From Amphiscolops sp. MND2022 (taxonomy: Eukaryota): a DNA stretch of 64,000 nucleotides. Numbering within the stretch: the first letter of the stretch is position 1; every line of letters starts with the position of its first letter. A program made the position numbers and the translations under genes. The notes below the pieces were generated by a model, which was not told the DNA's origin, made no database searches, and saw only the letters and a list, made by a program, of their open reading frames with translations. Where the stretch lies: contig OZ076415.1 in the NCBI GenBank assembly GCA_964187785.1, positions 67,146,001-67,210,000 of the forward strand, written 5' to 3'. Positions 1 to 43,003 of the stretch are shown piece after piece.

Positions 1-908
1 TCCTCAAGCAGCGGCGACGATCGGGATCCACTCTCTCTGGTGGTGTTAGTATATCAATTTGATATTGGAGGTGTAGGCATTTTCCCTCTAATTGAATTTC
101 TGACAAATTTTAACAGTTTTTCTGTAAGAGATAAGTTAGGCGGATTGCTTTTGGTCCGTTTGCAGAGGACCCGCTCTCTCTCTCTTCGTAGTTAGCTCAT
201 TAGCTCAAGACGAACGTTTTCCCAGAAAACATTAGGAGACTCCAGTCAGTCCCAAGCAAAAACGAAGCAGTCGCTTCTTTCAATTAAACGGTGTCCGTGA
301 CCTAGTAGCATTGGGTCGTAGCATTGAGCTACCGGAGAACTTTCAAAGTCTCTTGCAGGAAAAACAACCCGTTTGCATTGGGTTCGAGAGTTGTAATAAC
401 GTTGTAGCAAAACTAAGGTTGGGAAAGTCACTCTGGTCCGAAGGAACAAATTGAGTAAAAGCCCGCTTAGGTCTCCTCGGAGGCTGGTTGAAAGCCGTGA
501 GCCCAGTGGTAATCTTGGAACCTATGTAGCATACCGAGTGTGGAAACCTAGAAATCTAGTGAACCTAGAAATCTAGTGAAAGTACCCGAGTGTTTGCCTG
601 ATAGTGATCTGGGACCCACGCACTTCAATCCTAAGGACAAGAGTGACTCCCTCGGACGATTTAGTTAAAGTAATTTTCCGTCAACAGTCGCAAGAGCATT
701 TTTTCAAGTGGGTACAAAAACTCTGTGGACTGAGTGTATTCTCCATAGGTTTTCTCAGGGTAACTTCGGCGGATTCGTTTACCCCGAATTACTCTAGTAA
801 GCAACCTCTTATCACCAACGGGATTTGTGAGTATCCCAGAACTTTCGAGTCTGTAACCCTGCACCTGAGGAACGTACCTCTCCCCAGTTGATAGGTGTGA
901 ATTTTACA
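1..908 (+). repeat. 5' LTR of element 1 (truncated by window edge)
   Basis: Matches 11911-12838 except 4 substitutions (113, 427, 776, 848) and a 20-bp (CT)n length difference. Ends ...TTTTACA. Confidence 0.95.
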
Positions 909-909
909 G

Positions 910-927
910 TGGCGCTCCTGGGTGGGC
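910..927 (+). promoter_or_regulatory. Primer binding site of element 1
   Basis: TGGCGCTCCTGGGTGGGC starts 1 nt after the LTR end. TGGCGC resembles tRNA-Lys-type PBSs; the cognate tRNA is not established. Confidence 0.7.
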
Positions 928-984
928 TGTTGGTTCTTAACTCTTTTAACAGGTGCAGTTTCAGCAGCTTTTCTTTTTGACAAA

Positions 985-1974
985 ATGGACACTCCTATCA
1001 GACCAGAACGATTTTCGTCCAAAGAGTACAAGGATTTTCGAACATGGCGGCAACATTTCACAAGAGTAGCCACAGCCAACGGCTGGGACAATCAACAGCA
1101 GAGACGGATGATCCCTTGTAGCCTCGGCAGTGGCCCGCTGGAAGAATACGCCACCTTGCCAGAGAATCAGCGTGAAGGCAACGACGTTACGGGGGCACAA
1201 CTTCTAGATGCGCTTGCGACAAGACTAGTCCCATTCGCCACGCAAAGGGGCCTGCGACAAGACTTCAAACTGGCAGCCCAAGAAGATAGCGAGAGTCTGC
1301 GTGAGTGGGCCAGACGAGTCAGAACACTTGGTCAGAGGGCCTACGGTACTTTGGCTGCTATGGACAGGGAAGCACTCCAGCGTGACCAGTTCATTGATGG
1401 ACTCACGGATGCAGACATCCAAGAGTCACTTTGGAAAGAGGACATAGATGGTTTTGGGGAGACCATCGAGCGTGCTCTTCGACTGGACAGCATCAACAAA
1501 GCAAAACAAGCGAAACAAAAACGACGAGCAGGACCAGTGGTGAGGCATGCCTACTTTGAGGACGAATGTGACGTAGAGTGTGGACACCGAACAGGCGTGA
1601 ACGCACTGGTCGAGCAGGGATCTGGTTCTGGCCTACAGGCTAAATGGGAGCGACAAGCGAAGGAGACGCAGGATCTGGTGAAACAACAGAACGTCTTTTT
1701 GCAAATGCAAACGACTATGTTGAACGAAACCCTCACTCGTCTCGAAGACAGTCTGAGGACACTCGCTTCAGGCCCGAAAGGTCGCTACGGTAGTCAGACC
1801 AATCAGAAGTTGTTCGACCCGTACCCGGGAGAAAAAAATAGTTTCGGGAACTCCGGCGCATCCCCCAACCAGGCTGAGTGCTATCATTGTCACGAGACGG
1901 GGCATTGGGCGAGGGCTTGCCCAAATCGTGGGACACCCGACGAAACCTCAACCAGCGAGAACCATTTAAACTGA
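985..1974 (+). CDS. gag: Gag with CCHC zinc knuckle
   Basis: Open ORF from ATG 985. Capsid-like region (WRQHFTRVATANGW) and CYHCHETGHWARAC knuckle. Confidence 0.9.
   Translation: MDTPIRPERFSSKEYKDFRTWRQHFTRVATANGWDNQQQRRMIPCSLGSGPLEEYATLPENQREGNDVTGAQLLDALATRLVPFATQRGLRQDFKLAAQEDSESLREWARRVRTLGQRAYGTLAAMDREALQRDQFIDGLTDADIQESLWKEDIDGFGETIERALRLDSINKAKQAKQKRRAGPVVRHAYFEDECDVECGHRTGVNALVEQGSGSGLQAKWERQAKETQDLVKQQNVFLQMQTTMLNETLTRLEDSLRTLASGPKGRYGSQTNQKLFDPYPGEKNSFGNSGASPNQAECYHCHETGHWARACPNRGTPDETSTSENHLN
1965..1971 (+). promoter_or_regulatory. -1 ribosomal frameshift slippery site
   Basis: T TTA AAC directly before the gag stop TGA. The -1 frame is open (PFKLKTAGE...) into pol. Confidence 0.75.
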
Positions 1975-2060
1975 AAACGGCCGGGGAGGAAACAATACCC
2001 GCCCTGGCCATAAAACCAATTCATAGCTCACAGTCAGATAGCAATAGCATAATCGATTTT

Positions 2061-2470
2061 TCGTGGTTAGAAGTTCAAGGCGATTATTTTGAAAGTAGCA
2101 CCTCTTTGGCGTTTTTTGGTCCATGTGATTTTAAGGATGATCATTCTGAACAATTTTGGGAAAAATTCGGTCACCTCGAGACCTTGAACGGACATGAACG
2201 CGAAGTTGGCAGAATTTTGGTGTTTTTTGAAGCCTCTCTCAATCGGTACTTGTACTATATAATAACTCGAGAAAATCAAAACGAAAAAACTACTTTTGCA
2301 AACTTCCAAAAATGCTTGAAAATGCTCTCTAAAATCATTTGTAGTTATCAAATAAAAAAACTAAGTATCTCGAAACCGAACATTGAACTCAATGGAATGG
2401 TGTGGACAGCAGCGCAGTCAATGATGCAAGACGAATTGAGTGACACCCCTATCCAACTCCACGTGTACAG
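2061..2470 (+). CDS. TARG1/OARD1-like macrodomain within pol, between gag and protease
   Basis: Colinear by-eye match to TARG1 blocks: EVQGDYF, FWEKFG, RYLYYIITR, KTTFANFQKCLKML, IKKLSISK, WTAAQSMMQD, IQLHVY. Confidence 0.7.
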
Positions 2471-5400
2471 TGGCGACGACATAGTTCAAGGGATGACCAC
2501 TTGCGAATCCGGTCCACCGAAACCGTTGCAGTATGGCAAGGTAACATTGCTGCAACCGAAGGATGAACGTAGCACCGCAGAGCAGCAGAGATTGACATGC
2601 AAATTTGAAAGTGAGCGCCCCCTATCAGTATTGGTGGAAATTCAGCTAGCTGGACGGGGAATTGATGCGTTAGTGGACACTGGAGCATGTGTCAACGTCA
2701 TCAGTGGAAAACCATTGGACCAACTGGGGTTCAGACCGAAAATAGAACTCTACCAAGGGAAAGCACGCACAGTGGATGGCTCGCCGCTGGCAATCGAAGG
2801 AACGGTGAAACTGAGGACACAAGTTGGCAACGTGGACACGACAGTGAAGTACCTGGTGGCAGAAGCAATCGAAGTACCTGTCATTCTGGGCCTGGGTTTC
2901 ATGACTACTCACAATGCTCGGTGGATCTCCCTTTACACCAATTCTGGACGGGAACAGAGTCAAGTGCAACTCCGTTGAAGTTGAAAGGCAGCTGGCACAT
3001 GGATGCTTTGACAGTGGCAAAAACAGAAGTAGACTGGAAACCATTGAGCTCGAAGCACCAAACGGACGTGGGACCAGATGGGGCTGAGAAACGCTCAAGC
3101 AAGCAAGACGACGTGTCAGCCACACAAGAGCAGTCGGAAGAACCAGACGACATCACTCACATAGTGGAGCTAACGTCGGGTAACATTGCGGGTTCAGCGA
3201 GAGGAAACCTCGAAGACATCGTTCGAGAGTTCAGAGATGTCTTTGCAGTGAGGGACAGTGAATTTGGGGCGACGAATCAAGTGTATCATCACATTACCAC
3301 GGGGGACAGTCGGCCCATCAAACTACCACCACATAGAGTAGCACCGGGCAAACTCCCAGACGTGAAGGCAGAAGTGCAGGACATGCTTCAGCGAGGGATA
3401 ATCCAACCATCCAACAGTCCGTACAGTGCCCCAATTGTTATGGTGCGAAAAAAAGACGGGTCAAACAGATTCTGCGTGGACTACCGCCGACTCAATGAAG
3501 TTACACGGAAGGATGCACAGCCAATACCGAACATCGACAAGACGCTGGACACCTTGAAAGGTTCCAAGTGGTTCTCGAGTCTGGACTTGGCAAGCGGTTA
3601 CTGGCAAGTAGAAGTGGCCCCAGAAGACAGACACAAGACAGCCTTCATAACGCCGGATGGAGGGCTATACGAATACAAACGCATGCCTTTCGGCTTGAGC
3701 AATGCGCCTGGGACTTTCCAGCGACTGATGAACGAATTGTTTAAAGCAGAGCTTCATAAATATGTTCTGATATTTCTAGATGACATCCTCATTTACAGTC
3801 CCACGCTGGAGGAGCACGCTGACCACATTCGACGAGTCATGCTAACGCTGAGGGCAGCTAACTTGAAACTCAAGCCGAAGAAGTGCAAGCTTTTCCAACC
3901 ACAAGTGGAATACCTTGGGCACATAATCGATCAAAATGGTAGCCGACCAGACAATAAGAAAGTGGAAGCCGTCCAGACGTAGCCACGACCAACTACCGTC
4001 ACGGGGGTGAAATCGTTCTTGGGATTTTGCAATTACTACAGGAAATTTGTCAAGGACTTTGCACAGAAAGCTGAACCACTAACCAACTTGACAAAGAAGT
4101 ACCAGCGATTTTCTTGGGACACAAAATGTGAGACAGTCATTCAAACGCTCAAAGATGCACTGACGCGCGCGCCCCTTCTCGCTCATCCCGATTACAGTAG
4201 CCTCTTCATTGTGGACACAGACGCAAGCAACACGCAGCTGGGGGCTGTTTTGTCCAACGTCATCGATGGTGTGGAAAGACCGCTAGTATACGCCAGTCGC
4301 GTTCTTAGTAAAACTGAATGACAGTATGCCACTACAAAACGTGAAGCTCTAGCCGTAGTGCAGGCAGTAAAATGGTTCAAACCATACATTTGGGGTCTCA
4401 AATTCATCATTCGCACTGACCACGCTAGTTTGAAATGGCTTTTCAGGCAAAACGCTGACGGAATGACTTTTAGAATGTTACAGAAGCTACAGGAGTTCGA
4501 CTACGAGTTTGTGCATCGAGCAGGGGAAAAGCACGGAAACGCAGATGGACTCTCAAGGCAGATCCCAGATGAACAACTCCCGGGGTGGCTAGACGGGGAA
4601 CTCGAGCAACTGGTGCAACCTGAACCGGAACCCTGTAGTATGAAAGAAGCTATTCAGCGTGTGAAGCAAAGCCTGATTCGGCAGGTCTCAACGGATCCAA
4701 TGGGTACTCGAGAGGGCGAAGCCAACAGAAGTTCGTCGCTCAGAGAGGAACAACAGAAGGATTCGACCTTGGCTGTTTTCAGACGATGGACGGGAGCGGA
4801 AGACGACCCGAACCAAGCAGCACTCCCCGCAAGACAAATCACGAGGGAGGAGGCTAGCGAGCATGGGACAGAGATGCTTAGATTATGGTCCTCCTGAGAT
4901 CGATTCGCGTACAAAGACGGGGTCTTGCATTACAGATGGCAGACGGCAGGAAACGAAGCAGACAGGCTTTTACCAGTGATCCCCTGGGGTTTGCGAGCGG
5001 ATGCTTTGCAACAACTACACGACAGCCCAGTGAGTGGAGGGCATATGGCAGTGGAGAAAACACTGGATCGAATACGACAACGGTTCTGGTGGCCTGGAAT
5101 GAGACAAGACGTGGAAAGGTACATCGAAGTTTGCAAACCCTGTGCGGCACGCAGAACACAAGGTAAGAAACTAGTTGCAGAGTTGAAGCCTTTCATAGTG
5201 GGCACCAGGTTTCACAAGGTAGCAGCCGACATCCTCGGGCCTGTGACGCTGACGAAGGACACCTCATTCAAATACATCTTGGTGATGACCGACCTCTTTA
5301 CAAAGTATGTGGTGACGGTCCCCTTGGCTAGCCAAACGGCGTCGTCTGTGGCTGAGGCAATCATACAGAACTGGTTCTTACGTTTCGGCATGCCGGACAG

Positions 5401-6265
5401 CCTACACACAGATCAAGGAACGAACTTCTGCAGTCAACTTCTGAAGGACGTGTGCACTTTGCTGGGGGTTGACAAGACGAGGACATCAGCATTCCACCCA
5501 CAAGGAAACGGACAGGTAGAGAGACACAACCGGGTAGTAGCCGACATGCTGTCAAAATACTGCGCCAATAACCCTAGAATCTGGGACCGGCTTGTGCCCT
5601 ATCTCACATTCGTCTACAATACGACTGTACACAAGACGACTGGAGCAACGCCCTTCAGTCTGGTCTACGGCGCCGAGTGTCAATACCCAATAGACCTCTT
5701 CTATCCTGGGCAACCGGGTGCGGAGAGTTTGGACGATGGATTTGTGGACCACCTCGGACAGGTGTTCAGAGAAGCTCATCAGCAGGCGAGGGTTACACTG
5801 GGCACCAATCAACGACGTGTGAAGGACGCTTATCACAAAAAAGTGCACGGTGATCCCTACTGCGAAGGGATGCGAGTGTGGTTGTTCTGTAAGCACAAGG
5901 CCATCTCGAAGAAGTTCAACCTTCCATGGGAGGGGCCCTATTTAGTACTGGAACGGATCTCCGATGTTACGTACAAAATAGCGAAGGAACCTGTGAAAGA
6001 AGGCAGATGGCAAATTGTGCATTATAACCGACTGAAGCCCTACACAGCGGAGGCCGAAAGACCACGACGAGGGGTCAATCAATCAAAGCAGACAGTTTAC
6101 GAAGAAAATACCGATTCAGAGGCGACGGAAAGCGAAGATGACACCAAGCATGAGACTGGGGACCCACGTGGCACCTTAACCGGAAAACAGACATCAAAGG
6201 AAAACCCTAATTTCCAATCCCCTGCCAAGAAATTTTGTTTAGAAATACCTGCTAACCCGTTTGGT

Positions 6266-6790
6266 AGCCTCTGTTTAGGTGATTCAATAACCAAGCGACT
6301 GCGAGCACGTGAAGTAGCTGATGACTGCGTAGTCAGGGGTTTCAGTGGCATCACGATAGACGAACTACGGCGGTGACTCAAGAGGTCAGACGCAACGAGG
6401 ATACATGTGGTGGCGCTGTGCATTGGAACGAACGACATATTGTCAGGTTCAGCAACTCCGAAGACCATGTGGCGATCGTACGAAGAACTGCTGGATGACC
6501 TTGTGCTCAAGTTCCAGCCATCAAAACTCGTGGTCTGTACTCTGCCTCCCCTCGAAGGTTCGCTTGCTCACCACGACGACCTGGTGACAAAATTCAACAA
6601 CTGCTTAAAGAAGCAGTTGGAGACGTGGAGACAAAAGGCAGCCTCAACGCAGATAGAAGTTATTGACGTTTACAAGCAATTCGAAGGAAAAAACTTGATG
6701 TCTCGGGACGGCATTCATCCCAACAAAAGGGGGCTGACGACCATGGCACACTTGTATCGACGGGTATGCGAACTTGAAAATGTGGCAATG
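6266..6790 (+). CDS. SGNH/GDSL hydrolase domain C-terminal to integrase (in pol frame, one stop at 6374)
   Basis: Block I LGDS (6278-6286), block II GFSG, block III IGTND, block V DGIHP (6707-6718). Confidence 0.85.
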
Positions 6791-7428
6791 ACGGGGGACA
6801 GTGACAGTGAGGACGAGGAACAACAGTTCTGGATGCCCAACACTGCCACATTGGGACAGAGAGTATCTAATACCGATACCCAAGGTACTCCTGTGGCTGC
6901 AGACGAGACATTGACGCCGGGACCCCTTCTGAGCGCAGGGACACACGAAGGGACAGTACTGGAGACTCTGCAGCTGGGCACGCCAGCTGATCCAGCACGT
7001 ACTCCAGTTGAGGCAGAAACTCCAAGAGCCAGTGAGAGGAAATCTCTAATCCCCCGAAGAAGCTTCACCCTGTTCCCAACGACGCCGCAATTGGATCCCT
7101 GTAGCGCAGACACCGGACAATCGAGACCCCTTCGAAACCGCAGGGCCCCAGACCGCTTCGGTGTACCTGTAACCTACACATAATTCAAACTATTCTTGAT
7201 AGAGTATAATCGTTTTTATTTCATAAACAAAAACATATAGATACATATATAAGAAAGGTTTTTCTTAAATTTTCAAAAGTAGGATTCTGTTGATAAATAA
7301 CCCTCCATCATAAATATCTGATAGGGTAGGGTGATCATAGTACGGACGTATCCCTTTCTACTTTCAAGAGTCCATGGTAACTACGTGCGCAGTATAACAC
7401 CCATCCAAGAATATCTTTTTTAAAATTT

Positions 7429-8040
7429 GTGCCATTAACTTTAGACCATTACCGAGTGCTACAGAATGGAACTCCCTCACAGTTCGAGAGTCAATGCAAC
7501 AACCCTGGCTCAACCCTGGAAAAGACCAATCAACAGGCCGACTGTGGACAAACGCACGAGCTGAGCCGGCATTTTAACTTCCAAGGAATCAGCCCGTCGG
7601 ACGGCTCCTACGGAGGGTTTTGGGGAGAGCGGATGAGAATCAACGACGACCAGACGTTTAGTAATCCACCACCCCCACCCTTACAGACCGGGCACTACTG
7701 GGCGAGTGAGAGCGAGGGGAAATTGTACTACGTGGAGGACTGGTACTGGGCGTCGCCAACATCGAAAAGATTATACCTCCTAGAGTATAAACCCACCCAC
7801 AGGAAATGGCCGGTCACTACCAATACGATGACTTTGGTGCCCATGACGAAGGCTTGGGAGGAGTATTGGGAGGTATTCCTCCATTGGCTCCAGAGGAAGG
7901 CTAAAGCGCCAGAGCTAGTGGTGCAACAGGCCATCCAAACTTGCCTTCTCGCCACGCAGGAGGTTCGAGCACGAACCAACGAGAGAGAGCGCTCCAGGCG
8001 CAGGAGCCCATCGCAATGGAGCACCGAAGTGAACTTTTAA
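7429..8040 (+). CDS. Orphan accessory ORF between pol and env
   Basis: 203 open codons between AT-rich spacers. First in-frame ATG at 7633; possible splice acceptor TTTAG at 7444. Trp-rich core and RERSRRRSPS tail. Confidence 0.55.
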   Translation: MPLTLDHYRVLQNGTPSQFESQCNNPGSTLEKTNQQADCGQTHELSRHFNFQGISPSDGSYGGFWGERMRINDDQTFSNPPPPPLQTGHYWASESEGKLYYVEDWYWASPTSKRLYLLEYKPTHRKWPVTTNTMTLVPMTKAWEEYWEVFLHWLQRKAKAPELVVQQAIQTCLLATQEVRARTNERERSRRRSPSQWSTEVNF

Positions 8041-8254: not shown

Positions 8255-10420
8255 ATGTGTTTAGGCCTCATGCTGTCCTTCTTTCTTCTTTGCTCACTGT
8301 GGGGAATTACCTCTGCCTCACTGGTCAACACATCGATTGGTGCCATATTTGTGCCCCAGACACCAGTTGTACTCCGCACGACAGATGTCAAAACGTGGCT
8401 CTTTATACCTTTTCCCGAAGGCGTAACAATTAACAAAACCCAAGTTCAGGATATCTTCGAAGGGCATTGGAGCGAAATGGATGAGATCTGGTCCAAGTAC
8501 AGCACATCGAAATACGTCTGGGGCAGCGCCCACAGTCCTCCGGACCATCTTAGCCAGAGTATTTCAAGGCTCTGTGGTGACTATAAACTCACGGCCGGCT
8601 GGATTGATGCCCAGAGAAAGATGATGCAAGCACTGGAACACCAAATGACACTAACGAACGAAGTACGACAGAGACTAATAGAACGAGCCCAAATGATGGT
8701 CAACTCCACGGAACCTGTTTGGTCTCGACAACCAAGGTTTTGGGCACCGGTCGTTGCAGGTGCGGCAGTCGCTACAGTATTGGAACCCGCCCTACCAGAA
8801 GAAGGATGCAAAATACTTTCAGTCTTTGGCTTGTGTAAAGACCATAAAGCAAAAATGATAGAAAAATTGCATTCAGCGTTGGGGGCAAACAAGGAGAAAC
8901 TCAAACAACTGTCCGAAAACAGCCAAGACGCTATTTTTGCACTCGAAAGCAGAGTAGAAGCAACGAAAGAAAACCTCCGGCTACTCAGCACCGAGTCAGA
9001 CACAAACTTTGCTCAAATTCGGAGTGAGATGAGCCGAATGCTGGATTGGCAGAGGGAACTGGTCAAATGGAAGAACGACTGCCAAAAAGGGGGCTTCGCA
9101 CACAGCTTCTGAACAATTCTGGAATGGGCCAATGGGACAAACTACCTAACAGGGCTGATCAACGAAGTAAGTTCGTACCGCATGGGCCTTCTAACATACG
9201 AGCGTGAAATGAGCGACGCACTAGAGGTCTTGATTCACGGACGACTGCCAGTGAGTATGGTCCCACCAGACGACCTGGCCACAATCCTCAATCAAATTGA
9301 AAAGAACAAACTCCGAGAAGCAATACCACGTGAGTTTCTAATGTCCTACTATAGTTTCGAACTAGTAAATTCTGTGCATGCAACAGGACGAGGCCTCCAC
9401 ATCAAATGGAGGGTGCCATTACATCCACTAACGGACGGGTTGCATGCCACGTAAAGAGCAATAGCAACACTGCGGCCGATCGAAAACACCACCACGGGTT
9501 CTCGGTTCAAGTTGAAGAAGACCATTTTGTTGGTGTCGCAGCAGAAGACGACTTATGCCGAGGCAGATGATCTGGATATCATACATCACTGTGATGGGAA
9601 CAGCAAACTGAAGTTGTGTCAACGAAACTTCGCAACCACTTCTAGACCGCAGACAGGGTGCTTGTCGAGCTTATTCACCGGAATGGAAGGGCACGTCTTA
9701 GAACAATGTGAGCAGAAGGTAGAAACGCTACCGACACAACCTAGGACAGTCTCCTTGGGGCTATCAACGTTTTTGGTGGAAGCTCCCAACAATGCCTACA
9801 CTTGGATCAATATCAGCAGCGTAAGTGGTCATCGTTCCATCATTCCCGGTTGTATTAGTTGTGTCATAAGGCCCCCTTGTTCGGGCTATTTGGAGCATCC
9901 CAACGGCATTCAACTGGTCCCCAGTGGAGACGATTGTGAAGTGGAGGATCCAGGCGATGTTAAGGAAGTAGTCCAGCCCGGCCTCTGGCGCGACGTACTC
10001 GGTTTGATAGCAGAGATTGCTCCGAGAGATGATGATGGAATCCAGACGCAAAGTATCTTGGACGAAGTCACATCAGAATTACTAGGAGCTCCAAGAGGTG
10101 GAAATTTGTCAGAGAAACTGCGGACAGTGGCCACACCAATCATCCAACGGTGGGCGAAGGACACGCCACCGAAAAGTGCGAATACACATGGACAACAGGT
10201 AACGTGGATGGTTGGGTCAATCGTTCTCTTCTGCTGCTTTCTTCTAAGCATAACCATAATTGTGTTTGGTCTTGTGTGGTGGAACCCTCGAGGGCAACAT
10301 CAACAGCCTCAGACTGCACCACCTGGTGCACTGGCACCGCCCCCCAGCCCTGGACCAGATGATCGATTGTCCGATGTGGAGCCTAGGAACCCAAATACCA
10401 GCCGCTTTTCACCCGCATGA
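8255..10420 (+). pseudogene. env: Envelope-like class I fusion glycoprotein, two in-frame stops
   Basis: Signal peptide, furin-type RQPR (8726-8737) then hydrophobic FWAPVVAGAAVA, heptad region, Cys-rich ectodomain, N-glycosylation sequons, TM helix near the C-terminus. Stops at 9110 and 9452 in the same frame. Confidence 0.85.
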
Positions 10421-11107: not shown

Positions 11108-11864
11108 TGTGAGATTGATAAAATAACCTAATTGCATGAATAATATAAGATGAAAATACTAACTAGATTTCGATGAAAGCGTTCTTAATAACGGCAAAAT
11201 GAATATCTTCGGAGACAATAACTCAAACTTATATCAAGAAAGAACGTCGCGATATACCAATTGCTTATGTACTGGACAAATTTGATCGTGACAAAATGTG
11301 CCGATTGTGTTAAGGTTCTCAAATTCAAACCATGAAAACTAACAAAAATTTATCTCAACTTACCAAATTTCTCGGCAACTGTATGAATTCAATCGAAGTG
11401 TCTTCTCTGCTTGATGAAAATTTCAAAAGTGATCCAAATAAGATGTGATGCCCAAAAATAGAGCATGCAGTTCAAAGTTAAAAGATACCAGGCGAAAACC
11501 GTCCGACTAGGCGGACATATTGAAGGATAGGTGTCAGCACATGCCGGGAATCAAAACCTTCCCAACTGATAAGTGTTTCAAAATATGTCTAGATACAGCC
11601 AATTATGGCAAGTTCATGTCGATTAATAAAGATTCGGGGACAAAAATAGTAAAATGGGCTGACGGCCGTCTGGGAAGCCGTCAAAGATATGCAAAACGCG
11701 ACTGATAACCGATCTAAAAATACGGCAAACGGAGTATAAATACCAGCAATTTTTGACCTGAAGATCACAAGAAAATCGGGAGCAGAAGCAGACGATACCC
11801 CCTTTCGAGAAGTCACGATACCGATACCCTCAAAGCGGATCCGAGACTCCCTAACTGTTTCCGT

Positions 11865-31546: not shown

Positions 31547-33228
31547 TCCTTGGAAGAGGATTGTTGAGGTCGTTCTATTTTTGGTTTTATAGGTTTTCTA
31601 GCTTGTTTGTAAGCTTCGATAACCTTCTTTTGGGCTTCGGTGAGGTTCCACTTCGGTGGTCGGTTATCCATGTTGGCGCCGAAGTAGCCGTTTTCTTCCT
31701 CATGACCTGGTGTATTGCAGTTTTGGCATTTTTCTGCATCCGGGTCATCTTCAAGTTTACGCCGTTTTGCTAACTTGGGGCAGTCAGCCATCATATGACC
31801 TGTCTCCTTGCAGTAACGGCATTGGTCATTTTTAAGTGTCTTGTTGGGTACTGTTTTTGGAGTCTGAGCTTTAGACTTCTCATTTTGTTTTTTAGTTGGT
31901 TTTTCAGTATTTTGTTCTTTTTTGGTGACGGTCATTTGGGTCTTGACCGAGGTTTCGTCTGCTTCCAAACCATTTAGCTCCATCTCCCTCTCGAGATGTT
32001 TAACGATCTGGTCGTATGTGCCGTTCTCGAGATAGGCTTGGTTGATGGATTTTTTAAGGTGAGGGGGCATCTTTGCATAGAGTAGGTTCTCTATCATCTG
32101 GTGTGCGGTATCTCCGAAAGCTTTTTCAGCGCTTTCTTGGAGTTCTTCAAGGAAATCCGGTAATTTTTGGTTTTCGGGATCGAAGAAAAGTCTATTGAAT
32201 CGGTGCTTTGCTGAGGCACTGGATTCTGGTTTCACGTATTTTCTGCGAAAGACTTTTAGAATGTCTTCCAGTGTGGTAGATGGCGTTCTTTGTATGTTTT
32301 TGAATGTTTTTAATGCCAAACCTCTGAGGTGTGCGTGAAAGTGGTTAATTTTCATTTCCTCTGTTAGATTCGGCTGCATGCGAAGTGTTGTATGAAACAG
32401 GTCTTCAAAGTATTCAAATTTCTCGTTTTTCTCGTTTTTTCCATTGAATGTCAGTGTGTTTTTCGGGTGAAAAAGTGATTGTTGTGAGTTTTTATTGGCC
32501 AGTTTCTCGATTGCTTGTGCAATTTGATTAACTGGGTCAAGGGGTTTATTTGTCAATGTTGACGTTGTTTGATCTGCGTGGGATCCAACTGTATCATTTA
32601 AAGACTGAGGATTTTGGGAGCTTTGTCTATGGAGTTGTCTGTTGGTTCCTGTCACCATGTGATAATCCTCCTCCTCGGAGTCTCCTTCTGATATTATGGT
32701 TTCGTCTAAGTTCGGTTCATTTTGACAAAGTGGTCTAGCAGGATTCCTTAATTCTCTCATGTCAGAGGCTCTGAGGGGATGATCGTCCTCATTTTCAGTA
32801 TCTGATTTTTCTATGTTTGATGCGTGAACTCCATTAGACCTAATACTTTTGGATCCCGAAGGTTGAGAGTTTTGCATTTCATTAATTTCAGATCTGGGAT
32901 TTGTTATTGTTGATGTTGTTTTGGTTGTTCTTATTTCTTTCAAAATTGCATCAAATTTGTTCTCCATCTCTTCTCTCATTTTCATTATCCTGTCATTGTT
33001 CTTTTGTTCAAAGTTCTCTGTCCAAACTTGGATTTCGTTACTGATTTGACTAGGTTCTATCAGACTAGATCTGTTCTCGTTTTCACCTAAAGGTTCCTGA
33101 ATAACAGTACTAACATTAGTTAAAGTTTCATTACCTTGCATTGGCGTTTCTACTTGTGTTTCACTCAATTCTCGCTCAGGTGAAGGTGTTTCATGCCTTC
33201 TAGATCTTCTGTTTCTCTTATTTCCCAT
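31537..33228 (-). CDS. gag: Gag of element 2, starting inside the 5' LTR
   Basis: ATG 33228, open to stop 31537. Capsid-like region, CRYCKETGHMMADC knuckle and a second degenerate knuckle. Confidence 0.88.
   Translation of the reverse strand: MGNKRNRRSRRHETPSPERELSETQVETPMQGNETLTNVSTVIQEPLGENENRSSLIEPSQISNEIQVWTENFEQKNNDRIMKMREEMENKFDAILKEIRTTKTTSTITNPRSEINEMQNSQPSGSKSIRSNGVHASNIEKSDTENEDDHPLRASDMRELRNPARPLCQNEPNLDETIISEGDSEEEDYHMVTGTNRQLHRQSSQNPQSLNDTVGSHADQTTSTLTNKPLDPVNQIAQAIEKLANKNSQQSLFHPKNTLTFNGKNEKNEKFEYFEDLFHTTLRMQPNLTEEMKINHFHAHLRGLALKTFKNIQRTPSTTLEDILKVFRRKYVKPESSASAKHRFNRLFFDPENQKLPDFLEELQESAEKAFGDTAHQMIENLLYAKMPPHLKKSINQAYLENGTYDQIVKHLEREMELNGLEADETSVKTQMTVTKKEQNTEKPTKKQNEKSKAQTPKTVPNKTLKNDQCRYCKETGHMMADCPKLAKRRKLEDDPDAEKCQNCNTPGHEEENGYFGANMDNRPPKWNLTEAQKKVIEAYKQARKPIKPKIERPQQSSSKDLN
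32640..32657 (-). promoter_or_regulatory. Primer binding site of element 2 (inside gag coding sequence)
   Basis: TGGTGACAGGAACCAAC abuts the LTR end TCACA. tRNA not identified. Confidence 0.65.
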
Positions 33229-34281
33229 GGTTCTCAAGTGAAAATGTGTTGGGTTTGCTGGGGAAGAATTTGAATTCAGCTGAGATTTTCGACAAAACAA
33301 ATTGGAAAATGAGACAACTGTTGAATATGAGAAACTGCTTTTACAACGGTTTGGAGTGTGGGTTTTATCAACTGTTTTCAGCGAGAGTTATTTCAAAGAA
33401 TGATTGGGGTTTAAGGTCCTGAGCACAAGGAAAAAATGGTGGGGATTACACCCGTTTTTATGGGTGTCATGGTCTTCATATTCTATAAAAAGGATTACAT
33501 CATGTGTCGTAATTCTATTTATAACTCTAAATATACGTTGCATGACAAGCAGAAACAAGTATTGTACAGCTACAGCAAAAACCCTGGAAAACTGCATAAT
33601 GACGTATATACGGTCTTAAATTTCCGCATACCAACGAATAATCACAATGCAATAATGATATAACACCGTATGATGGGAAACGCGGAAAACCGCATATTGA
33701 CGTATAAGCGCCGGCGATTTTCCGCATAGTGACGTGTAAATATCACTGTGACAATGTATCAAGGAAATTACTGTTTTCCGCATGGTGCCGCATAAGCGGT
33801 GGTTAAAATCCGCACATTGCAGTATATGCGTTAGAAATTTTCCGTATGATGGTGTATAATTGTTAATCACAAACAGCATGATGAAGTGTATTCATTTTCA
33901 CATTTCCGTACTGTGACGCATACTCATTGATTTGAAAAGTCACGTTTAGATTAATCATTGCTTCCATTCAGAGATTATGGCCTAAGTTCAACTAAACAAC
34001 TCAATATTTCAAGCAAAATTAGGGTGAAAAGTTAAGAAAGCTTGGTCAACATGCCTTAATTCGCATCTGGCTTCCACAATTCCACCAAAGAAACTATAAA
34101 ATAAATATTTACATGACTTAATTCGTTGGTTAGGGTAAACAACGAGACAATAAAAGCAAAGAAATAAAGGGGGAAGGCAGTTTATTGAGTTTCATCAAAT
34201 TGAGTTTGTCTTTCAGGCTGCTTCTCTGTTTTCCTTTTTACTCTTGCAGAACAGGCCCAGAGCACCCATGAGGCTGCGACA
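32658..34281 (-). repeat. 5' LTR of element 2
   Basis: Copy of 18149-19773, followed by the PBS and flanked by the TSD. Confidence 0.95.
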
Positions 34282-34938: not shown

Positions 34939-35599
34939 TATATATTTGATGGATTTGATTTCCATATTTGCAACTCTTCAAGAGTCATTCCTGGGGGTGA
35001 TCAGAAACTGGGGGAAAGATTCTCAGGGATACCCGGTTGAAGATGACGACAACTTCCCGGAAAATGTGAGCGACATGCAACTGCTGAAAGTGCTCAAAAT
35101 GAATTACATTGCTTGCGACGAGGAATGCCAAACTATCTCGTATTTGCGTGTGCAGTCTGAAATTCGGACACTTCGATAAAGTTTCGTGAACCAAATAACA
35201 CGTTGTCGAGATACGTTTGCTGAACAATTTAGCTGAAAGTCATCAATCGTAATTTGAAGTCGTCTTTTATATGATTTCAATGACATTGTTCTGTAAAGTA
35301 ACGCCTACTGTTGACGCAGCAGATACTGAAAGACGTTTTATATTCAAAAATTCTAATATTGAGTTCACTGATTATGATATCGCACCAATTAAAGACACGT
35401 GCTTCTCATTGATGTTGTAAATTTGTTCACTCATGTAATCTGAATCATTCCTTTCTTCTTTCTTCACACTGTTCAGGCGCTGTAACTCTACTAAAAATAA
35501 AAGTCATCAGACTAATCACTTTTGCTCTCCCAAAAACGAAGACAATCACGACATTAATTGGTGCCACTGCACCCCGGGAAGAACCGAATCAGCAACAAA

Positions 35600-38500
35600 A
35601 TGACTTCCTATGAAGGGAAAACGCTTCAGCAACTCAAGCGCTTTCGTTCAGCGATCACAGGCGTGATAACCAAGACGCTGACAAAGACGCAACCAATTCT
35701 TGCCAAGGACAAAAACGACGTGACACCAGATGAGATTGCTGATTTGGAAGTCAGGCAAGCACTCTTCGAGCAGAAACTAAGTGAAGCTGAGCTTCTCAAC
35801 GCAGCAATTTTGGAGCAAACCCCAGACGCAGACGACGAGGTACAGGAAGAACTCATCAATGCCAGTGAGTTTCATTGTAACATATCTTTTGAGCTTAAAA
35901 GGATAGTGAAATTTCTCGAGCAATTCGTTGAACCTGGTCCCAGTCTTGAAAATGCTCCTGCTGCGGCAAGTGCGTCAGCCAATTGTGCAAGTAGTCTCAA
36001 AATGCCAAAATTCAGCTTGCCAAATTTTGACGGACAATATCAAAACTGGACGCCATTCTATGAACAATTCATGGCTTCGGTGGATAGTTCCAAAACTCTG
36101 CCAGACATTCAGAAATTCAACTACCTCAAATCTTCTCTTGTGGGCGAAGCTTCACAACTCATTTCATACCTACCTTTGTCAAATACAAATTACAAGATAG
36201 CGCTGAAAATTTTGATTGACCACTACGATAATCAGCGACTCATTGTGAACACCCATTTGGCAACCATTTTCAATTTGAAACCTCTACAAAGCGAATCAGC
36301 ATCACAATTACGAAAGCTCATAGTTGCATTCGAAGAAAATTTGATGGCCATTCAGGCTTTAAAGCTGGACGTTACTTCAAGTGATTTTGTTTGGGTTCAC
36401 GTTTTGACCAAAAAACTAGATCCAGAATCCAGGTGGCAATTTGAACTGGATCATCCAGGAAAGGAACTCCAGACGCTACAGCAACTAACGGACTTCATAA
36501 ATAGGCGAGTTCAAGCTTTGGAAGTCTCAGATACACGCAATTATTGAGTGAAAAATGATAAAATCAGTGCTATAACAGAACGCACTTCAAAGCAGAATTT
36601 CCAGAATTCAATCACACAGAATTATAAAGCCAAGTTTGAAAAATGCTCCGTATGTTCGGCAGATCACAAAATTTTCAAGTGTGAAAAATTCAAAACGTTG
36701 GATTTCAAGGCAAAGAAAGCTCTTGTTTTCAATTCCAAATTGTATTTCAATTGCCTCCAAGCAGGTCATCTTACAAAGGATTGTGAATCCAAAAGCACTT
36801 GCAAGGTTTGCAATGGTAAACATAATTCCTTGCTTCACAATGAAAATGCTGGTACACACATTGAAAGTACTAGCACACTTGTCTCCGGACAAGCATTGAT
36901 TCCATCTAATATTGGCATCTTACCAACAGCTATGGTTTCTATAGAAGATGACTCAAGCAATGTCATCAAATGTCGTGCTCTTCTAGACAGTGGCTCTCAA
37001 ATGAGTCTCATATCGGAAGAAGCAGTGCAACGAATGAAGTTGAAGCGTCAAAAACAATCACTCACTGTCAATGGGATTGGCAATGTTCACAGGACATACA
37101 ACTCTGGAAAGGTTCTGTTGAAACTGAAATCTAAAACAGGAAAACCGTTAGAAGTCCAGGCTTTCATTCTTCCAAATTTGACTCAGCATTTACCAAATAG
37201 GTCTTTCAAAACTACAGGCTGGCTGCAAATGAAAACAGTTGAGCTAGCGGATCCTCATTTCAATGAGAGGAAACCAATTGATTCAATTCTCGGAGCAGAC
37301 GTATTCGCGGAAATTATTTTGGATGGTTCTTTCAAAGAAGGAAATGGACTACACTTCCGTAATTCCATTTTTGGATGGATCGCATCGGGCAACCAACCCA
37401 ATCAAGAATCGTCTAGTGTTACAACTTCACTTTGCATAAATGAAACTTTCGATTTAAAAAAGTTTTAGGGAATAGAAGAAATTCCGAAAGCAAATCAATG
37501 GACAAATGAAGAACTTGCCTGTGAAAAACATTTCCAGGAAACAACTCAAATTGTTGAAAATCGATTTCAAGTATCAATGCCTTTCAAACCAGACGCTCGA
37601 CCTTTGGGGGATACATATGTCCAAGCCAAACGCCGTTTTCTCAGTTTGGAAAAAAGGTTAGAAGGTAACTCTAGCCTGAAACAACGTTATACAGACTTCA
37701 TTAACGAGTTCATTTCACTACAACATCTGGAACCTGTTCCAGATGCCGAAATTGACAAGACAGACCGTCAAGTGAACTTTCTACCACATCACTGTGTTCA
37801 CAAGGAGGATTCAACAACAACGAAACTGAGAGTTGTCTTTGATGGATCTGCAAAATCAACATCTGGTAATTCTCTCAACAGTTCCTTGATGATCGGGCCG
37901 ACGGTCCAAGAAGACATTTTCTCGATTCTCATAAGATTCAGATTCCATAAAATTGCTCTTTCTGCGGATATTGCAAAAATGTATAGGCAAGTCTCATTGG
38001 ATAAGGCCGGGAAAGATTTCCATCGGACTACTTGGGCGGGATTCCGCAACAAAACCGATCCAGCAGTATCGTATGACACGATGTATCTATGGAATAGCAT
38101 CTTCAGCCTTTCATTGTACTCGTGCAGTGAAGGAAATTGGAGATTCATGTGCTGACAAAGAACTCGGACACTCCATCAAGACAGATTTCTACGTTGATGA
38201 CTACCTGTCTGGAGCCAATTCCATCACAGAAGCTAGAACGAAGATAACAAAGGTTTGTGATGAACTCCAGAAGTATGGAATGCAGCTTCGTAAATGGGCC
38301 TCAAGTCATCACGAAATTACCACAGAACTGCCTGCGGAGCTCCGCGAAAACGTGGACATTGCAATAGTAATGCATGAAGACTACAAAATCGAAACGTTGG
38401 GAATTTCGTGGAAACCCAACACAGACAAATTCTACTTCAATACAGATTTTGCAGAGCGAAACAAGCTGACAAAGCGAGAGCTCCTCTCAATAACGACGAG

Positions 38501-40757
38501 ACTCTTCGATCCAATTGGTTTGTTTGGACCCATTGTAATTAGATTCAAGATACTACTGCAGAAAATTTGGGTTCTTGGGATCAGTTGGGATAAAACTTTG
38601 CCATCGGAGATCCAAGTGCAATGGAATCAGATGAAAACGGACTTGAAAAGTTTTAGAGATTTCTCGTTGAATCGATGCATAGTTCCCCCAACGAAAATTC
38701 AAACCGTACAACTGCATTTGTTCTCAGATGCATCGGAGCAGGCATACGCAGCTGTAATCTATGCGAGGATGGAGGAAACGAATGGTTTCGTCACTATGAA
38801 CCTCATGACAGGAAAGAATAGAGTGGCACCCATCAAAACAGTATCTCTTCCGCGTTTGGAATTGTGTGGTGCTCATTTGGGAGTCAAACTTTTGTCCAGG
38901 GTTGAAAAAATTCTCAAACTGACAAGTCTACCACACCAAGAAGTCTTTGGTTGGACCGATTCCACGATTGTGCTTCAATGGCTGGCACAACTTCCACGAA
39001 CTTGGACAACATTCGTAGCTAATCGAGTGTCTGAAGTGCAACAAATATTGCCGAGAGCAAATTGGAATCACGTTTCTTCATCGAGCAACCCCGCTGATTG
39101 TTCATCACGAGGAGCAAGGCTGGAAGTTCTTCAATCCTCCAGTCTGTGGTGGAATGGACCCGAATGGCTAAAAAAATCGCAAGATTCTTGGCCAAAATCC
39201 AAATTACAATTAGCTGAACCAATTGAAGTGAGACTCAAAAATGCAAAAATCACTGCATCATCAATTTCACTCACAGTCACACAATCGACATTGCTTTTCC
39301 GACATGATCGATACTCGAGTTTTTCCAAACTTATTCGGGTAGTCGCAACAGTTTTCATCGCCATGGAGAAGCTCAAGAGAGTCAACCGTTCATCTGATGT
39401 AACTGCGGCAGACATAACATCTGCAAAACGGAAAATACTAAAAGAGCATCAGATCGACTACTATGCAACTGAGTATCACACACTGGAAGCAGGGAAAGAG
39501 CTGTCAAAACAAAGTAAAATTCTCAATCTGAATCCATTCTTTGATGACGAAAGCAAGATCATCAGAGTGGGTGGACGCTTGTCTCAAGGCCAATTCAGAG
39601 AGCTGAAGAAATTTCCACTGTTAGTCAGTCAAGATTCAAAACTTGCGGTTCTCATTCTTCAACATTTTCATGAAGCTACGCTTCATGGTGGGGCGGAGCT
39701 GACTGTGAACTCCAGTCGAGAAGAATTTTGGTATCCAAATTCCAAGGTCCTGGTGAAAAAAGTGATCAAAGAATGCGTCAAGTGCAGTCGCTTCGAAAAC
39801 AAAATACCCTATCAACTCATGGCCGACTTGCCGTCTGAAAGGATAACACCGGCAAAACCCTTCGAAATATGTGGTTTGGATTTGGCAGGGCCAATATATA
39901 CTAAACCAGGAGTAAAAACGTACATAGCTATTTTTGTTTGCTTCGTAATCAAAGCAGTTCACATTGAATTAGTAACAGATCTAACGAAGGATTCATGTGT
40001 TTTGGCTATTCGGAGATTTATTTCCAGACGCGGCATACCTAGAAAAATTCTCAGTGACAATGGAAAGAACTTCATTGGAGCTAGCAATGATATCATGAAA
40101 ATACAAGAAATTCTCGCAAGGGAGAACAACAAAAATTCAGTTAGAAGTTTCATGGCGCAAGAAACAATTAAATGGGAAATGATTCCGCCCAGGTCACCGC
40201 ATTTTGGAGGATTATGGGAAGCTTCAGTGAAAAGTATGAAGCGTCACCTCCGCAGAGTCGTAGGTCTTCAAGTCCTTTCATTTGAAGAGCTGAATACATT
40301 GGTAATTGAAATAGAAGGAATTCTAAATTCCCGACCTTTGTCTGCAATGTCCAGTGACCCAAACGACCTTCAGCTGATTACCCCAGCACATTTTCTTCTA
40401 GGTAAACCGGCAAAAGATATACCTACAGTTCGTGAATGTGATGCGAAAATCAACTTTGGACAGAGATTCAAGTTACTCGAAGCATCTAAGCGATCATTTT
40501 GGACGTCAGGGTATCGAGATTACGTGGTAACCCTTCAGATACGCAAAAGATGGCTTCAATCGGGCCCTAGCTTCCAACAAGGTGATCTTGTCTTAGTGGC
40601 AGAAGACAACATGCCCCCCTTGCGATGGAAAATGGCAAGAATTGAGCAGTTGTACTCTGGCAACGATAACATAAACAGAGTTGCGAAACTCAAAACTGCA
40701 GTTGGTCAAATAATAAGACCTGTAGTCAAGCTCAGGAAGCTTCCTATTGAATCCTGA
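35600..40757 (+). pseudogene. pol: BEL/Pao gag-pol polyprotein, disrupted
   Basis: FDGQYQNW gag motif, three Cys/His knuckles, LLDSGS, YVDDYLSG, FSDASEQAY, integrase with SPHFGGLWE. Stops at 36545 and 37466; frameshift ~38025. Confidence 0.93.
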
Positions 40758-41425
40758 TATGGTTTCTTGAAGCAAATCGTACCTTGAAACACTTTAATAA
40801 TCGTATTTGTTGGCATTTGTCGTTCTACCGACAAAAAGTTGACCGAAGTTCTTCGCATCCCCTTTTGAGATTATCCATAGCAGCGCTCTGGGACTTACTT
40901 TAAACTGTACAGGAGACTCTCTGCTACAACTTCTAGGAACCCGAATTTTTAATTTCGGATTTTATCTTATTTTCTGAACCCTCAAAGTTATCACCTATTA
41001 CCCTATCTTCAGTACTATTGAGTAGCTACAAAATTATTTTCATGTTTAAAAGTTATTGAAGAGGTCATATAAACGAACAAACGTAACAGAAATCAACCTG
41101 AAACAGAATGGAGCGTGACTAACACTGTGAATGACTCGGCAGCAAAAAGATTGGATCAATTGATAAACCGCAACGTACTGGTTCGAATGAATCAGGTAGT
41201 TCATGCGTCGACAGCGTACTATTCCATTAAGGTTTTGTTCAATTTCTGAATACCTTACTACAATTCACTCAGTCATTCGATTTATTCACGTGAGCTGGCA
41301 CACTGTTGACTGCTATGGTCATCAAAAAATCAAACGTTATTCAATGAACGAAAGTAATTTCTGAAGATCAAATTTTCCTTGATTATTACAAAAAAAAGTT
41401 CCGGTAAAATGAAATTATCATTTGG

Positions 41426-42711
41426 TTAGTCGCTGGTGGCATTCCAAATTTCTACCCAAGCAGCAACAGGGAGTTCTTCATCATCAGAATCGAGATCAGT
41501 CAACGTTGGACAATCTTGACGTCCGCTTTCTGATACTGATTGACCAAAGTTAGCCAATCGTCGATTCTTCAAGGACTTTCTTTTCAAGCGTTTGATCGAA
41601 CTCAAACTCTCTTTCAAGTTATATTCATAGCGATGGAAGGCTTCAAGGTGCTCCACCATCTCTTTTCTAACAAGGAATGCCCTGACAGTCTTGGATTCCG
41701 AACAGACTGCAGACGTTTCGGACGATTTTTCCTGCACATTTTTCTTCCAATCAGACAACGCTTTTCTCCAGTACTTTATTCTGAGAAGCTTAATTAGACG
41801 ACCCAAGGACATCTGCTCAAGCCACTGCAGGAAAAAGCCCCGTTTGACGCCGCTGGAAAACCGATCTATTACCAAACTTCCACGAAGATGGTCAGACACA
41901 TTCAAACCCTCCCAGCCGTGCACAAGAGACCAACTAGTGCTTCCATCGGCAGCCGATGTGCGACCAGTCAGAACACAATGTGCAAAACAAGGAGGTTGAA
42001 TCAGAAGGTCACCAGGTTTCGCCAAATGATAACCGAGACCACGACAGAGCTTTTCATCATTACCATACTTTGCTCGGTCCATCAATAAATGATGAAAGTC
42101 TTTGAATGTTGTATCCCATATAGAAAACGAGAAAATTCAATATTGGAAGCAATGAGCCAGAGTTTTCGCCCGGACTCCAGCTTAGCAACACTTTCGGCCC
42201 CTGCGCTTTCTATATGGCCACTGGTGAACCAAGGATCCTTTATTGCTAAAAGAGCCTTGGAATCAACTGAAATGTAAGAAGGCGCGTCGACGCGTACACA
42301 GTCATCACTAAGTTCGAACGAGACTGTTCGACTACCTTCAAAACCTTTGTTATCCAAACATGAACTGGTAGCGTGGACAACAGCATCAAATCTATTTTTG
42401 ACTGATTCGAACAAAACATGGCCATGATTCCAGAAAGCTTTCGCTTGAGGACTCAAGTCGCACAGAGTGTCAGCAAGAGGTCCACGGAAGACAGTTGGAA
42501 TGCTTGGAAAATTACTCACCCAATTCAGAGCATTAAAAAGCACCAAAACAGGAAGTATTCCCCGAGCCTTCCAATTTCTGCCATCATTTTCCTCAGCCTC
42601 GAAGAAAATGTCTTCTACATCATTTTCAGCGGCAACAAATTGCGACGCAGACTGACCGTCAACACTTTCCCCAGCAAGAAGACTCATGGCAGTTTCTGAA
42701 AAAAAATTCAT
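41426..42711 (-). CDS. Antisense JmjC-like Fe(II)/2-OG dioxygenase inside the BEL element (one frameshift at 42082-42085)
   Basis: WFTSGHIESAG...GRKLWLI and KPGDLLIQPPCFAHCVLT. H-x-E...H triad (His at 42214-42216 and 41978-41980), Thr at -3 and Lys at +17 from the first His, as in KDM2/7-type JmjC. Confidence 0.75.
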
Positions 42712-43003
42712 TGAAGCCACTTGCTTCAAGGGGAGCGGAATGTTGACGGTCAGTCTGATACTGAAAGACGTTTTATATTCAAAAATTCTAATATTGAGTT
42801 CATTGATTATGATATCGCACCAATTAAAGACACGTGCTTCTCATTGATGTTGTAAATTTGTTCACTCATGTAAACTGAATCATTCCTTTCTTCTTTCTTC
42901 ACACTGTTCAGTTGCTGTAACTCTACTAAAAATAAAAGTCATCAGACTAATCACTTTTGCTCTCCCAAAAACAAAGACAATCACGACACCTACTAACTGG
43001 TGT

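Follow-up and report, generated by a model that had tools for sequence, protein, structure and literature searches.

LTR retrotransposons in the genome studied here appear to keep and exchange antisense accessory genes, and the most widespread of those examined is a JmjC gene whose product would, on comparative sequence and model evidence, erase repressive histone methylation. This reading is tentative, falling a little short of an even call, and counter-silencing by the cargo is likewise a plausible but putative function. The analysis is centred on three neighbouring elements within a stretch of 64,000 nucleotides (the window).

Three neighbouring LTR elements and their layout

The first-pass annotation of the window described three adjacent LTR elements with non-standard cargo, an assignment borne out by the LTRs and the 5-bp target duplication flanking each element. 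Elements 1 and 2, with the PR-RT-RH-IN order and Integrase_p58_C in addition to LTRs and target duplications (ACAGT and ACTTG), are Ty3/Gypsy elements; element 3, with a DUF1759 gag, Peptidase_A17, DUF5641, LTRs and the duplication CCTAC, is a BEL/Pao element. The LTRs of element 1 (-788..908 and 11108-12838) share 1689 identities with 8 mismatches, and those of element 2 are 99.2% identical. All three window copies are disrupted by stops or frameshifts. The extras named in that annotation (macrodomain, SGNH domain, orphan ORF and env in element 1, antisense zinc-finger gene, motif arrays and orphan ORF in element 2, antisense JmjC gene in element 3) are all present, and their recurrence in further copies marks them as family traits and not accidents of single copies. 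The trio itself is unremarkable, because such cargo-bearing elements are common in the genome.

Element 1 (Gypsy, + strand)
1..908, +, 5' LTR, starting 788 nt ahead of the window
901..1974, +, gag with zinc knuckle
1878..7183, +, pol (protease, RT, RNase H, integrase) with stops and a frameshift
2070..2480, +, TARG1/OARD1-like macrodomain where pol begins, ahead of the protease (E 2.5e-9)
6270..6760, +, SGNH/GDSL esterase fused behind the integrase; a stop splits the window copy
7633..8040, +, orphan ORF with Arg-rich end
8255..10420, +, env-like ORF, interrupted by stops
11108..12838, +, 3' LTR
Element 2 (Gypsy, - strand)
18149..19773, -, 3' LTR, containing a CCGCATA cluster near 19115-19310
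19730..20788, -, sense orphan ORF of 352 aa, CxxC near the C-terminus, stop inside the LTR
21590..21830, +, cluster of motifs, with a CCAATCAG box, ahead of the antisense gene; box in 11 of 11 aligned copies
22121..26472, +, six-exon antisense gene with BED-like zinc finger, possibly hAT-derived
24990..25295, +, CCGCATA array, a 32/64-bp tandem repeat in intron 5
26838..31334, -, pol, disrupted
31537..33228, -, gag, its reading frame beginning about 190 codons within the 5' LTR
32658..34281, -, 5' LTR
Element 3 (BEL/Pao, + strand)
35309..35553, +, 5' LTR
35558..40757, +, gag-pol (DUF1759, Peptidase_A17, DUF5641), disrupted
41426..42684, -, antisense JmjC gene, intronless, H-x-E...K...H, AATAAA 142 nt beyond the stop
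42741..42988, +, 3' LTR and probable antisense promoter for the JmjC gene

The antisense genes of elements 2 and 3 do converge on the end of pol, terminating 366 and 669 nt from its stop. This shared backwards layout can probably be attributed to intron retention and the avoidance of premature polyadenylation, and replication constraints would by themselves predict antisense orientation.

The antisense JmjC gene of element 3

The gene of element 3 encodes a JmjC-fold protein, a putative enzyme whose activity is predicted from its ligands and fold. The window copy is frameshifted near 42100, with both metal/2OG motifs still present; the model of a sister ORF from another locus (L021) is a predicted double-stranded beta-helix of the JmjC type (pLDDT 89.6), for which the best Foldseek match is KDM7A (E 8.6e-8). 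Of 69 sequences, at least 90% conserve H158, E160, K175 and H237, and the catalytic ligands are retained across 20% identity. In a PDB profile search the only JmjC rows are PHF8 and KDM7, ungapped between the first His and the Lys, at E 0.15-6.1. The element 3 clade falls below the cut-off of Pfam PF02373, with 9 of the 69 members at E<=1 (best 2.8e-4); an HxD-type JmjC found in three other loci (L223, L224 and L286) reaches it. By sequence, these small stand-alone predicted enzymes are a divergent branch of the family overlooked by Pfam.

The preferred reading is that transcription of the JmjC gene would begin at a promoter within the 3' LTR (in all eight BEL copies checked, 49-68 nt separate the ORF start from the LTR edge), that the protein would enter the nucleus via a basic tail, and that it would act on H3K9 or H3K27 methyl marks in the manner of KDM2/KDM7. 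Erasure of repressive histone methylation would then leave the element transcribed. The CpG observed/expected ratio is 1.01 in window positions 43000-64000, and no DNMT1/3-like match was found among 11 candidates in an exon-by-exon search that could miss genes; together these suggest that the relevant marks are on histones and not on DNA.

It is also possible, if somewhat unlikely, that the JmjC protein hydroxylates or demethylates something other than histones (a host defence protein, a translation factor, the tRNA primer or the proteins of the element) and aids replication by a route other than chromatin. In the VIA comparison of the model, the best row is JMJD5 (Z 14.6, rmsd 3.3, 191 aligned), followed by the demethylases PHF2 (Z 14.3, rmsd 5.9, 256 aligned) and KDM2A (Z 13.7, rmsd 5.1, 253 aligned); JMJD5, TYW5, JMJD6 and FIH lie within about 1 Z of the demethylases, a tie with protein and tRNA hydroxylases. 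However, the longest structural alignments, of 250-266 residues, are those with KDM2/7 and JMJD6, and the sequence profile selects PHF8/KDM7 only. No PHD or CXXC targeting domain is detected by Pfam scan or in the model, nor any other reader or DNA-binding domain in the element 3 protein, which would suit a target outside chromatin, as would the 2OG oxygenase of orchid Gypsy elements, which acts on RNA (PMC9289625). A JmjC type internal to LTRs has a weakly basic tail (4-5 of 12 residues), but the majority are basic, with runs of 6-8 K/R per 12 residues in 13 of 15. Elements with SET and JmjC genes are present in the same genome, which again argues for chromatin.

Exchange of accessory genes among elements

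The JmjC clade of element 3 extends to BEL/Pao elements, Gypsy elements, the LTRs of an env-Gypsy element and a large DNA element; among 42 stretches examined, the gene is on the strand opposite pol in all 34 that have a pol match. When 20 BEL ends were drawn without regard to their cargo, 4 had a second JmjC type and the other 16 had no JmjC match; at least two types have been taken up by LTR elements. The BEL-borne copies do not form one clade (p-AU 6e-5). A relative of element 3 and another BEL element (L109) have 80% gag-pol DNA in common, yet a sister relationship of their JmjC genes is rejected (p-AU 1e-8), which shows that the gene has been swapped between BEL backbones. Other mobile elements of the genome carry KDM2/7-like JmjC genes (E 2e-18) and SET genes, and some large DNA elements have SET genes besides JmjC; in trees, the element 3 clade stays separate from the KDM2/7-like genes that DNA elements carry. 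One Gypsy element (L040) that seemed to combine the zinc-finger gene with a JmjC gene was rejected, as the JmjC gene there belongs to a separate inserted large element.

Element 2 would have reached a similar end by another route, with a putatively non-cutting, possibly hAT-derived zinc-finger protein. Its antisense gene has exons at 22121-22217, 22501-23832, 23911-24395, 24480-24614, 24686-24767 and 25370-26472. In the window copy, exons 2 and 3 are damaged, as is the last splice acceptor; the exon 5 donor is GT in 9 of 11 aligned rows, and all splice phases agree with that donor. In the candidate CxxC...H...H finger of BED type, C366, H386 and H392 are invariant in eight of eight rows and the second Cys is present in seven, with no match to Pfam BED.

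The gene is possibly a dead hAT transposase, although hAT ancestry is weakly indicated. The model of the last exon aligns with Hermes (Z 5.0, rmsd 7.8, 159 aligned; model residues 1-225 on chain residues 368-589), a match that ties for first with an unrelated helical protein. The antisense exons return nothing significant against Pfam, PDB sequences or Foldseek, profiles of the gene do not match hAT transposase loci of the same genome, and a search for a longer homologue found none. In exon 3, inspection by eye at the expected strand ends of the DDE triad (unaligned positions) reveals no conserved acidic residue, and terminal inverted repeats of at least 40 nt are absent around the gene in the window.

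The zinc-finger protein is predicted to bind the CCGCATA arrays in the element's own LTR, promoter and intron. CGCAT is counted 8, 4 and 6 times in the arrays against shuffle means of 2.0, 1.7 and 1.2, the upstream array alone not exceeding the shuffle maximum of 6 in the window copy. The CCGCATA motif is conserved across families; no dense arrays were seen in a distant clade bearing a homologous zinc-finger gene. The complete element 2 layout is found in 10 of 10 fetched loci. Its sense orphan ORF has a dN/dS of 0.19-0.26 and is not matched by any orphan ORF of that distant clade (best E 0.013). Backbones with 92-98% identity on either side differ across 21903-26660, and on this sequence comparison the zinc-finger gene is exchanged among backbones as a cassette.

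More speculatively, and with rather less confidence than is given to the JmjC reading itself, animal LTR retrotransposons may operate antisense histone demethylases of their own, with a transposon-specific JmjC lineage passing between BEL/Pao, Gypsy, env-Gypsy and large DNA elements as a module against heterochromatin that any of them can take up. With tamed transposases as sequence-specific activators, it would form a genome-wide counter-silencing pool in an animal whose DNA is little methylated.

Element 1, other readings and known systems

The macrodomain and SGNH esterase of element 1 do not indicate a chromatin role. The macrodomain matches TARG1/OARD1 over the domain, more strongly in a sister lineage (E 3e-18), where the GCGLD catalytic loop of TARG1 is largely retained, than in element 1, where it is divergent; ADP-ribose handling is its likely role. 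The SGNH domain (Pfam E 7e-11) lies in the pol frame, with the S, G, N and H blocks of SGNH hydrolases visible as GDS, G, GTND and DGIH. The env-like ORF has an N-terminal hydrophobic stretch, an RQPR site and a C-terminal hydrophobic stretch, and matches no family or structure in Pfam and PDB; it and the esterase likely have roles in particle or membrane steps.

The cargoes may instead be accessory genes that selection maintains for unrelated functions, with a transcription factor, an esterase, a fusion protein and an ADP-ribose binder among them, the JmjC protein being a scaffold or regulator and the layout a matter of replication constraints only. The placement of the macrodomain would fit, as it precedes the protease in element 1 and lies before or after the integrase in sister lineages (in the L092 lineage it is absent from the element 1 position and located before the integrase), as would the SGNH cargo of rotifer LTR elements, tied to membranes or RNP assembly (PMC5408684), and the plant Retand antisense ORFs and tandem arrays, described as having an unknown regulatory role (PMC11963269). 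Such a lack of any common counter-silencing theme is nevertheless improbable given that the JmjC ligands persist at the sequence divergence noted above and that LTR elements acquired more than one JmjC type. Passive transduction of copy-specific or neutral host DNA is very improbable: every window copy is disrupted and the element 1 orphan ORF has a dN/dS of 0.29-1.43, near 1 in several close pairs, but close pairs show window pol decaying at rates similar to the cargo, which is present family-wide with third-position bias, zinc-finger exon lengths of 486 and 135 are fixed amid variable introns, the CCAAT box is invariant, and for elements 2 and 3 dN/dS of 0.12-0.45 between subfamilies indicates purifying selection, which refutes this explanation for those two.

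The suggestion in the first-pass annotation that counter-silencing genes are repeatedly acquired in the 3' region holds in part. The refuting condition named there, that the cargo be copy-specific and neutral, fails for elements 2 and 3, and JmjC genes do turn up repeatedly, in BEL and Gypsy as well as large DNA elements, but the extras of element 1 are not 3' chromatin genes, its macrodomain being inside pol, and the trees show elements exchanging genes from a common pool, not capturing a host gene afresh each time.

If the preferred reading is true, a histone-mark eraser kept by several animal retrotransposon lineages would be a direct counter-attack on heterochromatin. Known element-encoded anti-silencing factors are mostly from plants and fungi, and their targets are DNA or RNA methylation. 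The existence of JmjC-positive and JmjC-negative BEL families, and of near-identical backbones with different cargo, makes the question testable by comparison. Among cellular enzymes, KDM2/KDM7 (PHF8, KDM7A, KDM2A) share the JmjC fold, the His-acid-His ligands, the ungapped His-to-Lys spacing and a Gly-Gly after the acid residue, whereas the element proteins have HxE in place of HxD, lack PHD/CXXC and are 10-16% identical.

Chromatin domains fused to transposons, and DNMT/MBD capture by retrotransposons, also involve mobile elements recruiting chromatin readers and modifiers (bioRxiv 2021.11.30.470311); the JmjC gene here is a separate antisense unit and not a fusion, and the main text of that preprint has no occurrence of the term JmjC. 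Titles and abstract openings revealed no LTR retrotransposon described as carrying a JmjC gene, a scope outside which lie subscription papers, Repbase and supplements (including Supplementary Table 6 of the preprint, which could list cases), and term searches of PMC6431247, PMC4695847 and PMC10515909 gave nothing further. In rotifers, a GDSL/SGNH or DEDDy ORF3 is common to several retroelement types (PMC5408684), resembling the present elements in the SGNH cargo and in a pool of extra ORFs common to unrelated elements; here the SGNH domain is in the pol frame behind the integrase, and the shared gene is JmjC, under purifying selection. Plant Retand/Tat elements have antisense TRP28 ORFs, predicted to bind DNA, between pol and the 3' LTR, together with tandem arrays (PMC11963269), whereas the element 2 gene has five introns, a BED-like finger, no TRP28 match and an animal host. 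VANC, an anti-silencing protein of DNA transposons that removes DNA methylation (PMC5735166), and TnpA, a transposase-derived regulator of a DNA transposon (10.64898/2026.08.24.746577), offer parallels in an element-encoded protein with short non-coding motif arrays and in the loss of catalysis that turns a transposase into a regulator. Motif arrays exist in element 2 too, with binding to them predicted only, but VANC targets diverge fast whereas CCGCATA is conserved. In orchids, Ty3/Gypsy LTR elements encode an AlkB m6A demethylase, likewise a 2OG/Fe oxygenase fixed as an additional ORF and proposed to counter host surveillance (PMC9289625); the predicted enzyme described here differs in being a JmjC protein, encoded antisense, common to BEL and Gypsy lineages, and found in an animal.

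Three LTR elements and their accessory genes

The window lies in a 1.07-Gb genome, and the first-pass annotation had claimed for it three neighbouring LTR elements, each with non-standard cargo. This claim holds, as LTRs and a target duplication were found for each.

LTR elements of the window, each with a 5-bp target duplication (self-alignment and flanks)
Element 1: to 12838, plus strand, Gypsy
Element 2: 18149-34281, minus strand, Gypsy
Element 3: 35309-42988, plus strand, BEL/Pao

Stops or frameshifts interrupt all three window copies. The dN/dS check proposed there was also run: the element 3 cargo, an antisense JmjC gene, gives 0.12-0.45 between subfamilies, with third positions leading, and the accessory genes of these elements are real and selected. 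In close pairs including the decayed window copy, JmjC dN/dS is 0.41-1.0, and the pol of that copy gives 0.55-0.72.

The macrodomain of element 1 is TARG1-like with a divergent catalytic loop, and all four SGNH blocks are present. Against the most distant copy (L283, itself decayed), the macrodomain has a dN/dS of 0.22, SGNH 0.31 and part of env 0.18; values for the orphan ORF spread over 0.29-1.43 across the pairs compared. Sister lineages have macrodomains elsewhere in pol, and Gypsy pol genes show three positions in all: before the protease, before the integrase and after the integrase (loci L096, L097 and L093), with a weak dUTPase match as well in L096. SGNH cargo is already known from rotifer LTR elements (PMC5408684).

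Elsewhere in the window, an ORF at 48337-49161 with a weak GAG-pre-integrase match is probably a Copia remnant, and a 172-bp repeat occurs three times at 57910-58424, close to dispersed repeats that are also found inverted at 43502-43806.

The antisense zinc-finger gene of element 2

A common layout of gag, pol, antisense gene and orphan ORF recurs in 10/10 fetched loci (110 listed); the last exon gave 6450 first-look candidates, a figure that should not be taken as a copy number. Splice sites are kept in 9-11 of 11 aligned rows and exon phases agree. Exon 3 is 486 nt in 9/11 rows and exon 4 is 135 nt in 10/11, while introns vary. With dN at 0.17-0.41, synonymous sites have reached saturation. 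Upstream of the gene, CCAATCAG occurs in 11/11, and in 11/11 the three non-coding regions, taken jointly, have CGCATA or ATGCGG as their leading 6-mer.

The gene is exchanged between elements. Two loci (L043, L045) are 92-98% identical to the window in both flanks but differ across 21903-26660, and L053 and L057 are sisters by cargo and not by integrase (p-AU 8e-6). Three parts can be told apart in the protein: a CxxC...H...H finger, an alpha/beta middle and a helical end. The model of the helical end (pLDDT 70.2) aligns weakly and collinearly with Hermes. Profiles of this genome's hAT genes gave no match to the protein; hAT ancestry is somewhat favoured.

In element 2, the gag frame (33228-32658, minus strand) opens some 190 codons within the LTR and continues across the primer-binding site; its LTR part is 62-70% conserved in protein across families. 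A distant Gypsy clade (L040, L229-L232; 7894 first-look candidates) has an antisense zinc-finger gene 21-27% identical, lacks dense CCGCATA arrays and carries a different orphan ORF.

The JmjC gene and its carriers

A Pfam search did not recognise the antisense gene of element 3. Genome searches gave 103 matches, or 136 with a distant member as query, and a library of cluster representatives gave 178 hits; H158, E160, K175 and H237 are retained in at least 90% of 69 aligned sequences. The unbroken sister ORF at L021 (93-96% identical) was modelled at pLDDT 89.6. Foldseek ranked KDM7A, TYW5 and FIH highest, and VIA gave JMJD5 14.6, PHF2 14.3, KDM2A 13.7, TYW5 13.7 and JMJD6 13.4. The predicted structure therefore identifies a JmjC protein without separating demethylase from hydroxylase. 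In the sequence profile search, PHF8 and KDM7 were the sole JmjC chains matched, weakly.

In 18 of the 20 loci fetched in a first search, BEL pol lies on the strand opposite the gene; one further locus lacks pol and one is a nested insertion. In a second search, pol lies opposite in 13 of 18 loci (two BEL, nine Gypsy from the broad group of element 2, and two env-Gypsy in which both LTRs contain the gene); the remaining five are three LTR-only matches and two from a large element without pol. A uniform recount among 42 stretches places JmjC opposite pol in 34/34, although these copies, all picked by cargo and including one nested case, represent roughly a dozen families and so are not independent. 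In a cargo-blind sample (20 of 150 BEL ends among the matches listed, from 6214 candidates), 4/20, or about 4/12 families, carry a JmjC gene in antisense that belongs to a second type, HxD. In 8/8 BEL copies, 49-68 nt separate the start of the JmjC ORF from the 3' LTR, and AATAAA follows the ORF on the antisense strand in 7/7 BEL copies and 0/2 Gypsy copies checked.

Element 3 and L109 are sister branches by pol (80% DNA identity), yet the L109 JmjC groups with Gypsy-borne genes. A tree that keeps the two JmjC genes together is rejected (p-AU 1e-8), and so is one that unites all six BEL-borne HxE genes in a single clade (p-AU 6e-5), both values being weakened by the naming of these groups only after the first JmjC tree had been inspected. 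Proteins of other datasets fall in the element 3 clade. Neither the host KDM5 nor a JMJD4-like gene is a clear donor; both have long branches.

Other arrangements were also seen. In an env-bearing Gypsy of the element 1 lineage (L092:2557-6234, L094/L095), an LTR of about 3.7 kb encloses the whole antisense JmjC gene, which is thus in both LTRs. L223 and L224 are Gypsy elements in which an antisense JmjC of the HxD type is flanked by pol and an additional sense ORF (753 aa) that had no family match. An RT and PHD-finger ORF between JmjC and pol (L097:3216-5960) is probably a nested non-LTR element, and the LTR-like matches L104-L106 lack pol within 10 kb.

Orientation, host chromatin and precedents

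The backwards orientation shared by the cargoes of elements 2 and 3 had been noted alongside a suggested arms race. Introns can persist only when antisense to the genomic RNA, and that RNA would be truncated by a poly(A) site in sense orientation; the orientation would therefore be explicable without an arms race. Counter-silencing is a putative function of the cargo, to be entertained at slightly under even chances.

CpG observed/expected is 1.01 at window 43000-64000 and 0.79-0.83 in the elements. A genome search for methyltransferases gave five matches, three of which we take by motif to be DNMT2-like; two are on small contigs of odd composition. These last (L307, L309) have DNA methyltransferase-like frames and CpG observed/expected of 0.6, and are possibly symbiont or contaminant DNA. 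Host KDM5 is present, as presumably are KDM4- and KDM6-like exons, judged by motifs, and KDM2/7-like JmjC genes and SET genes occur in large DNA elements. This context is compatible with a conflict over histone marks without demonstrating one. Multi-copy elements of more than 15 kb (L215-L222, L226-L228) have tandem arrays and numerous orphan ORFs in both orientations; KDM2/7-like JmjC, BRCT and SET matches were seen in one type, and an element-3-type JmjC with a weak SET match in another.

The new part is the antisense JmjC pool common to several element classes. Literature searches, judged by the titles and abstract openings of open-access papers, turned up no LTR element with a JmjC gene. 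The nearest precedents are an orchid Gypsy with AlkB (PMC9289625), TET/JBP reported in fungal DNA transposons (PMC12730594), Retand (PMC11963269) and VANC (PMC5735166).
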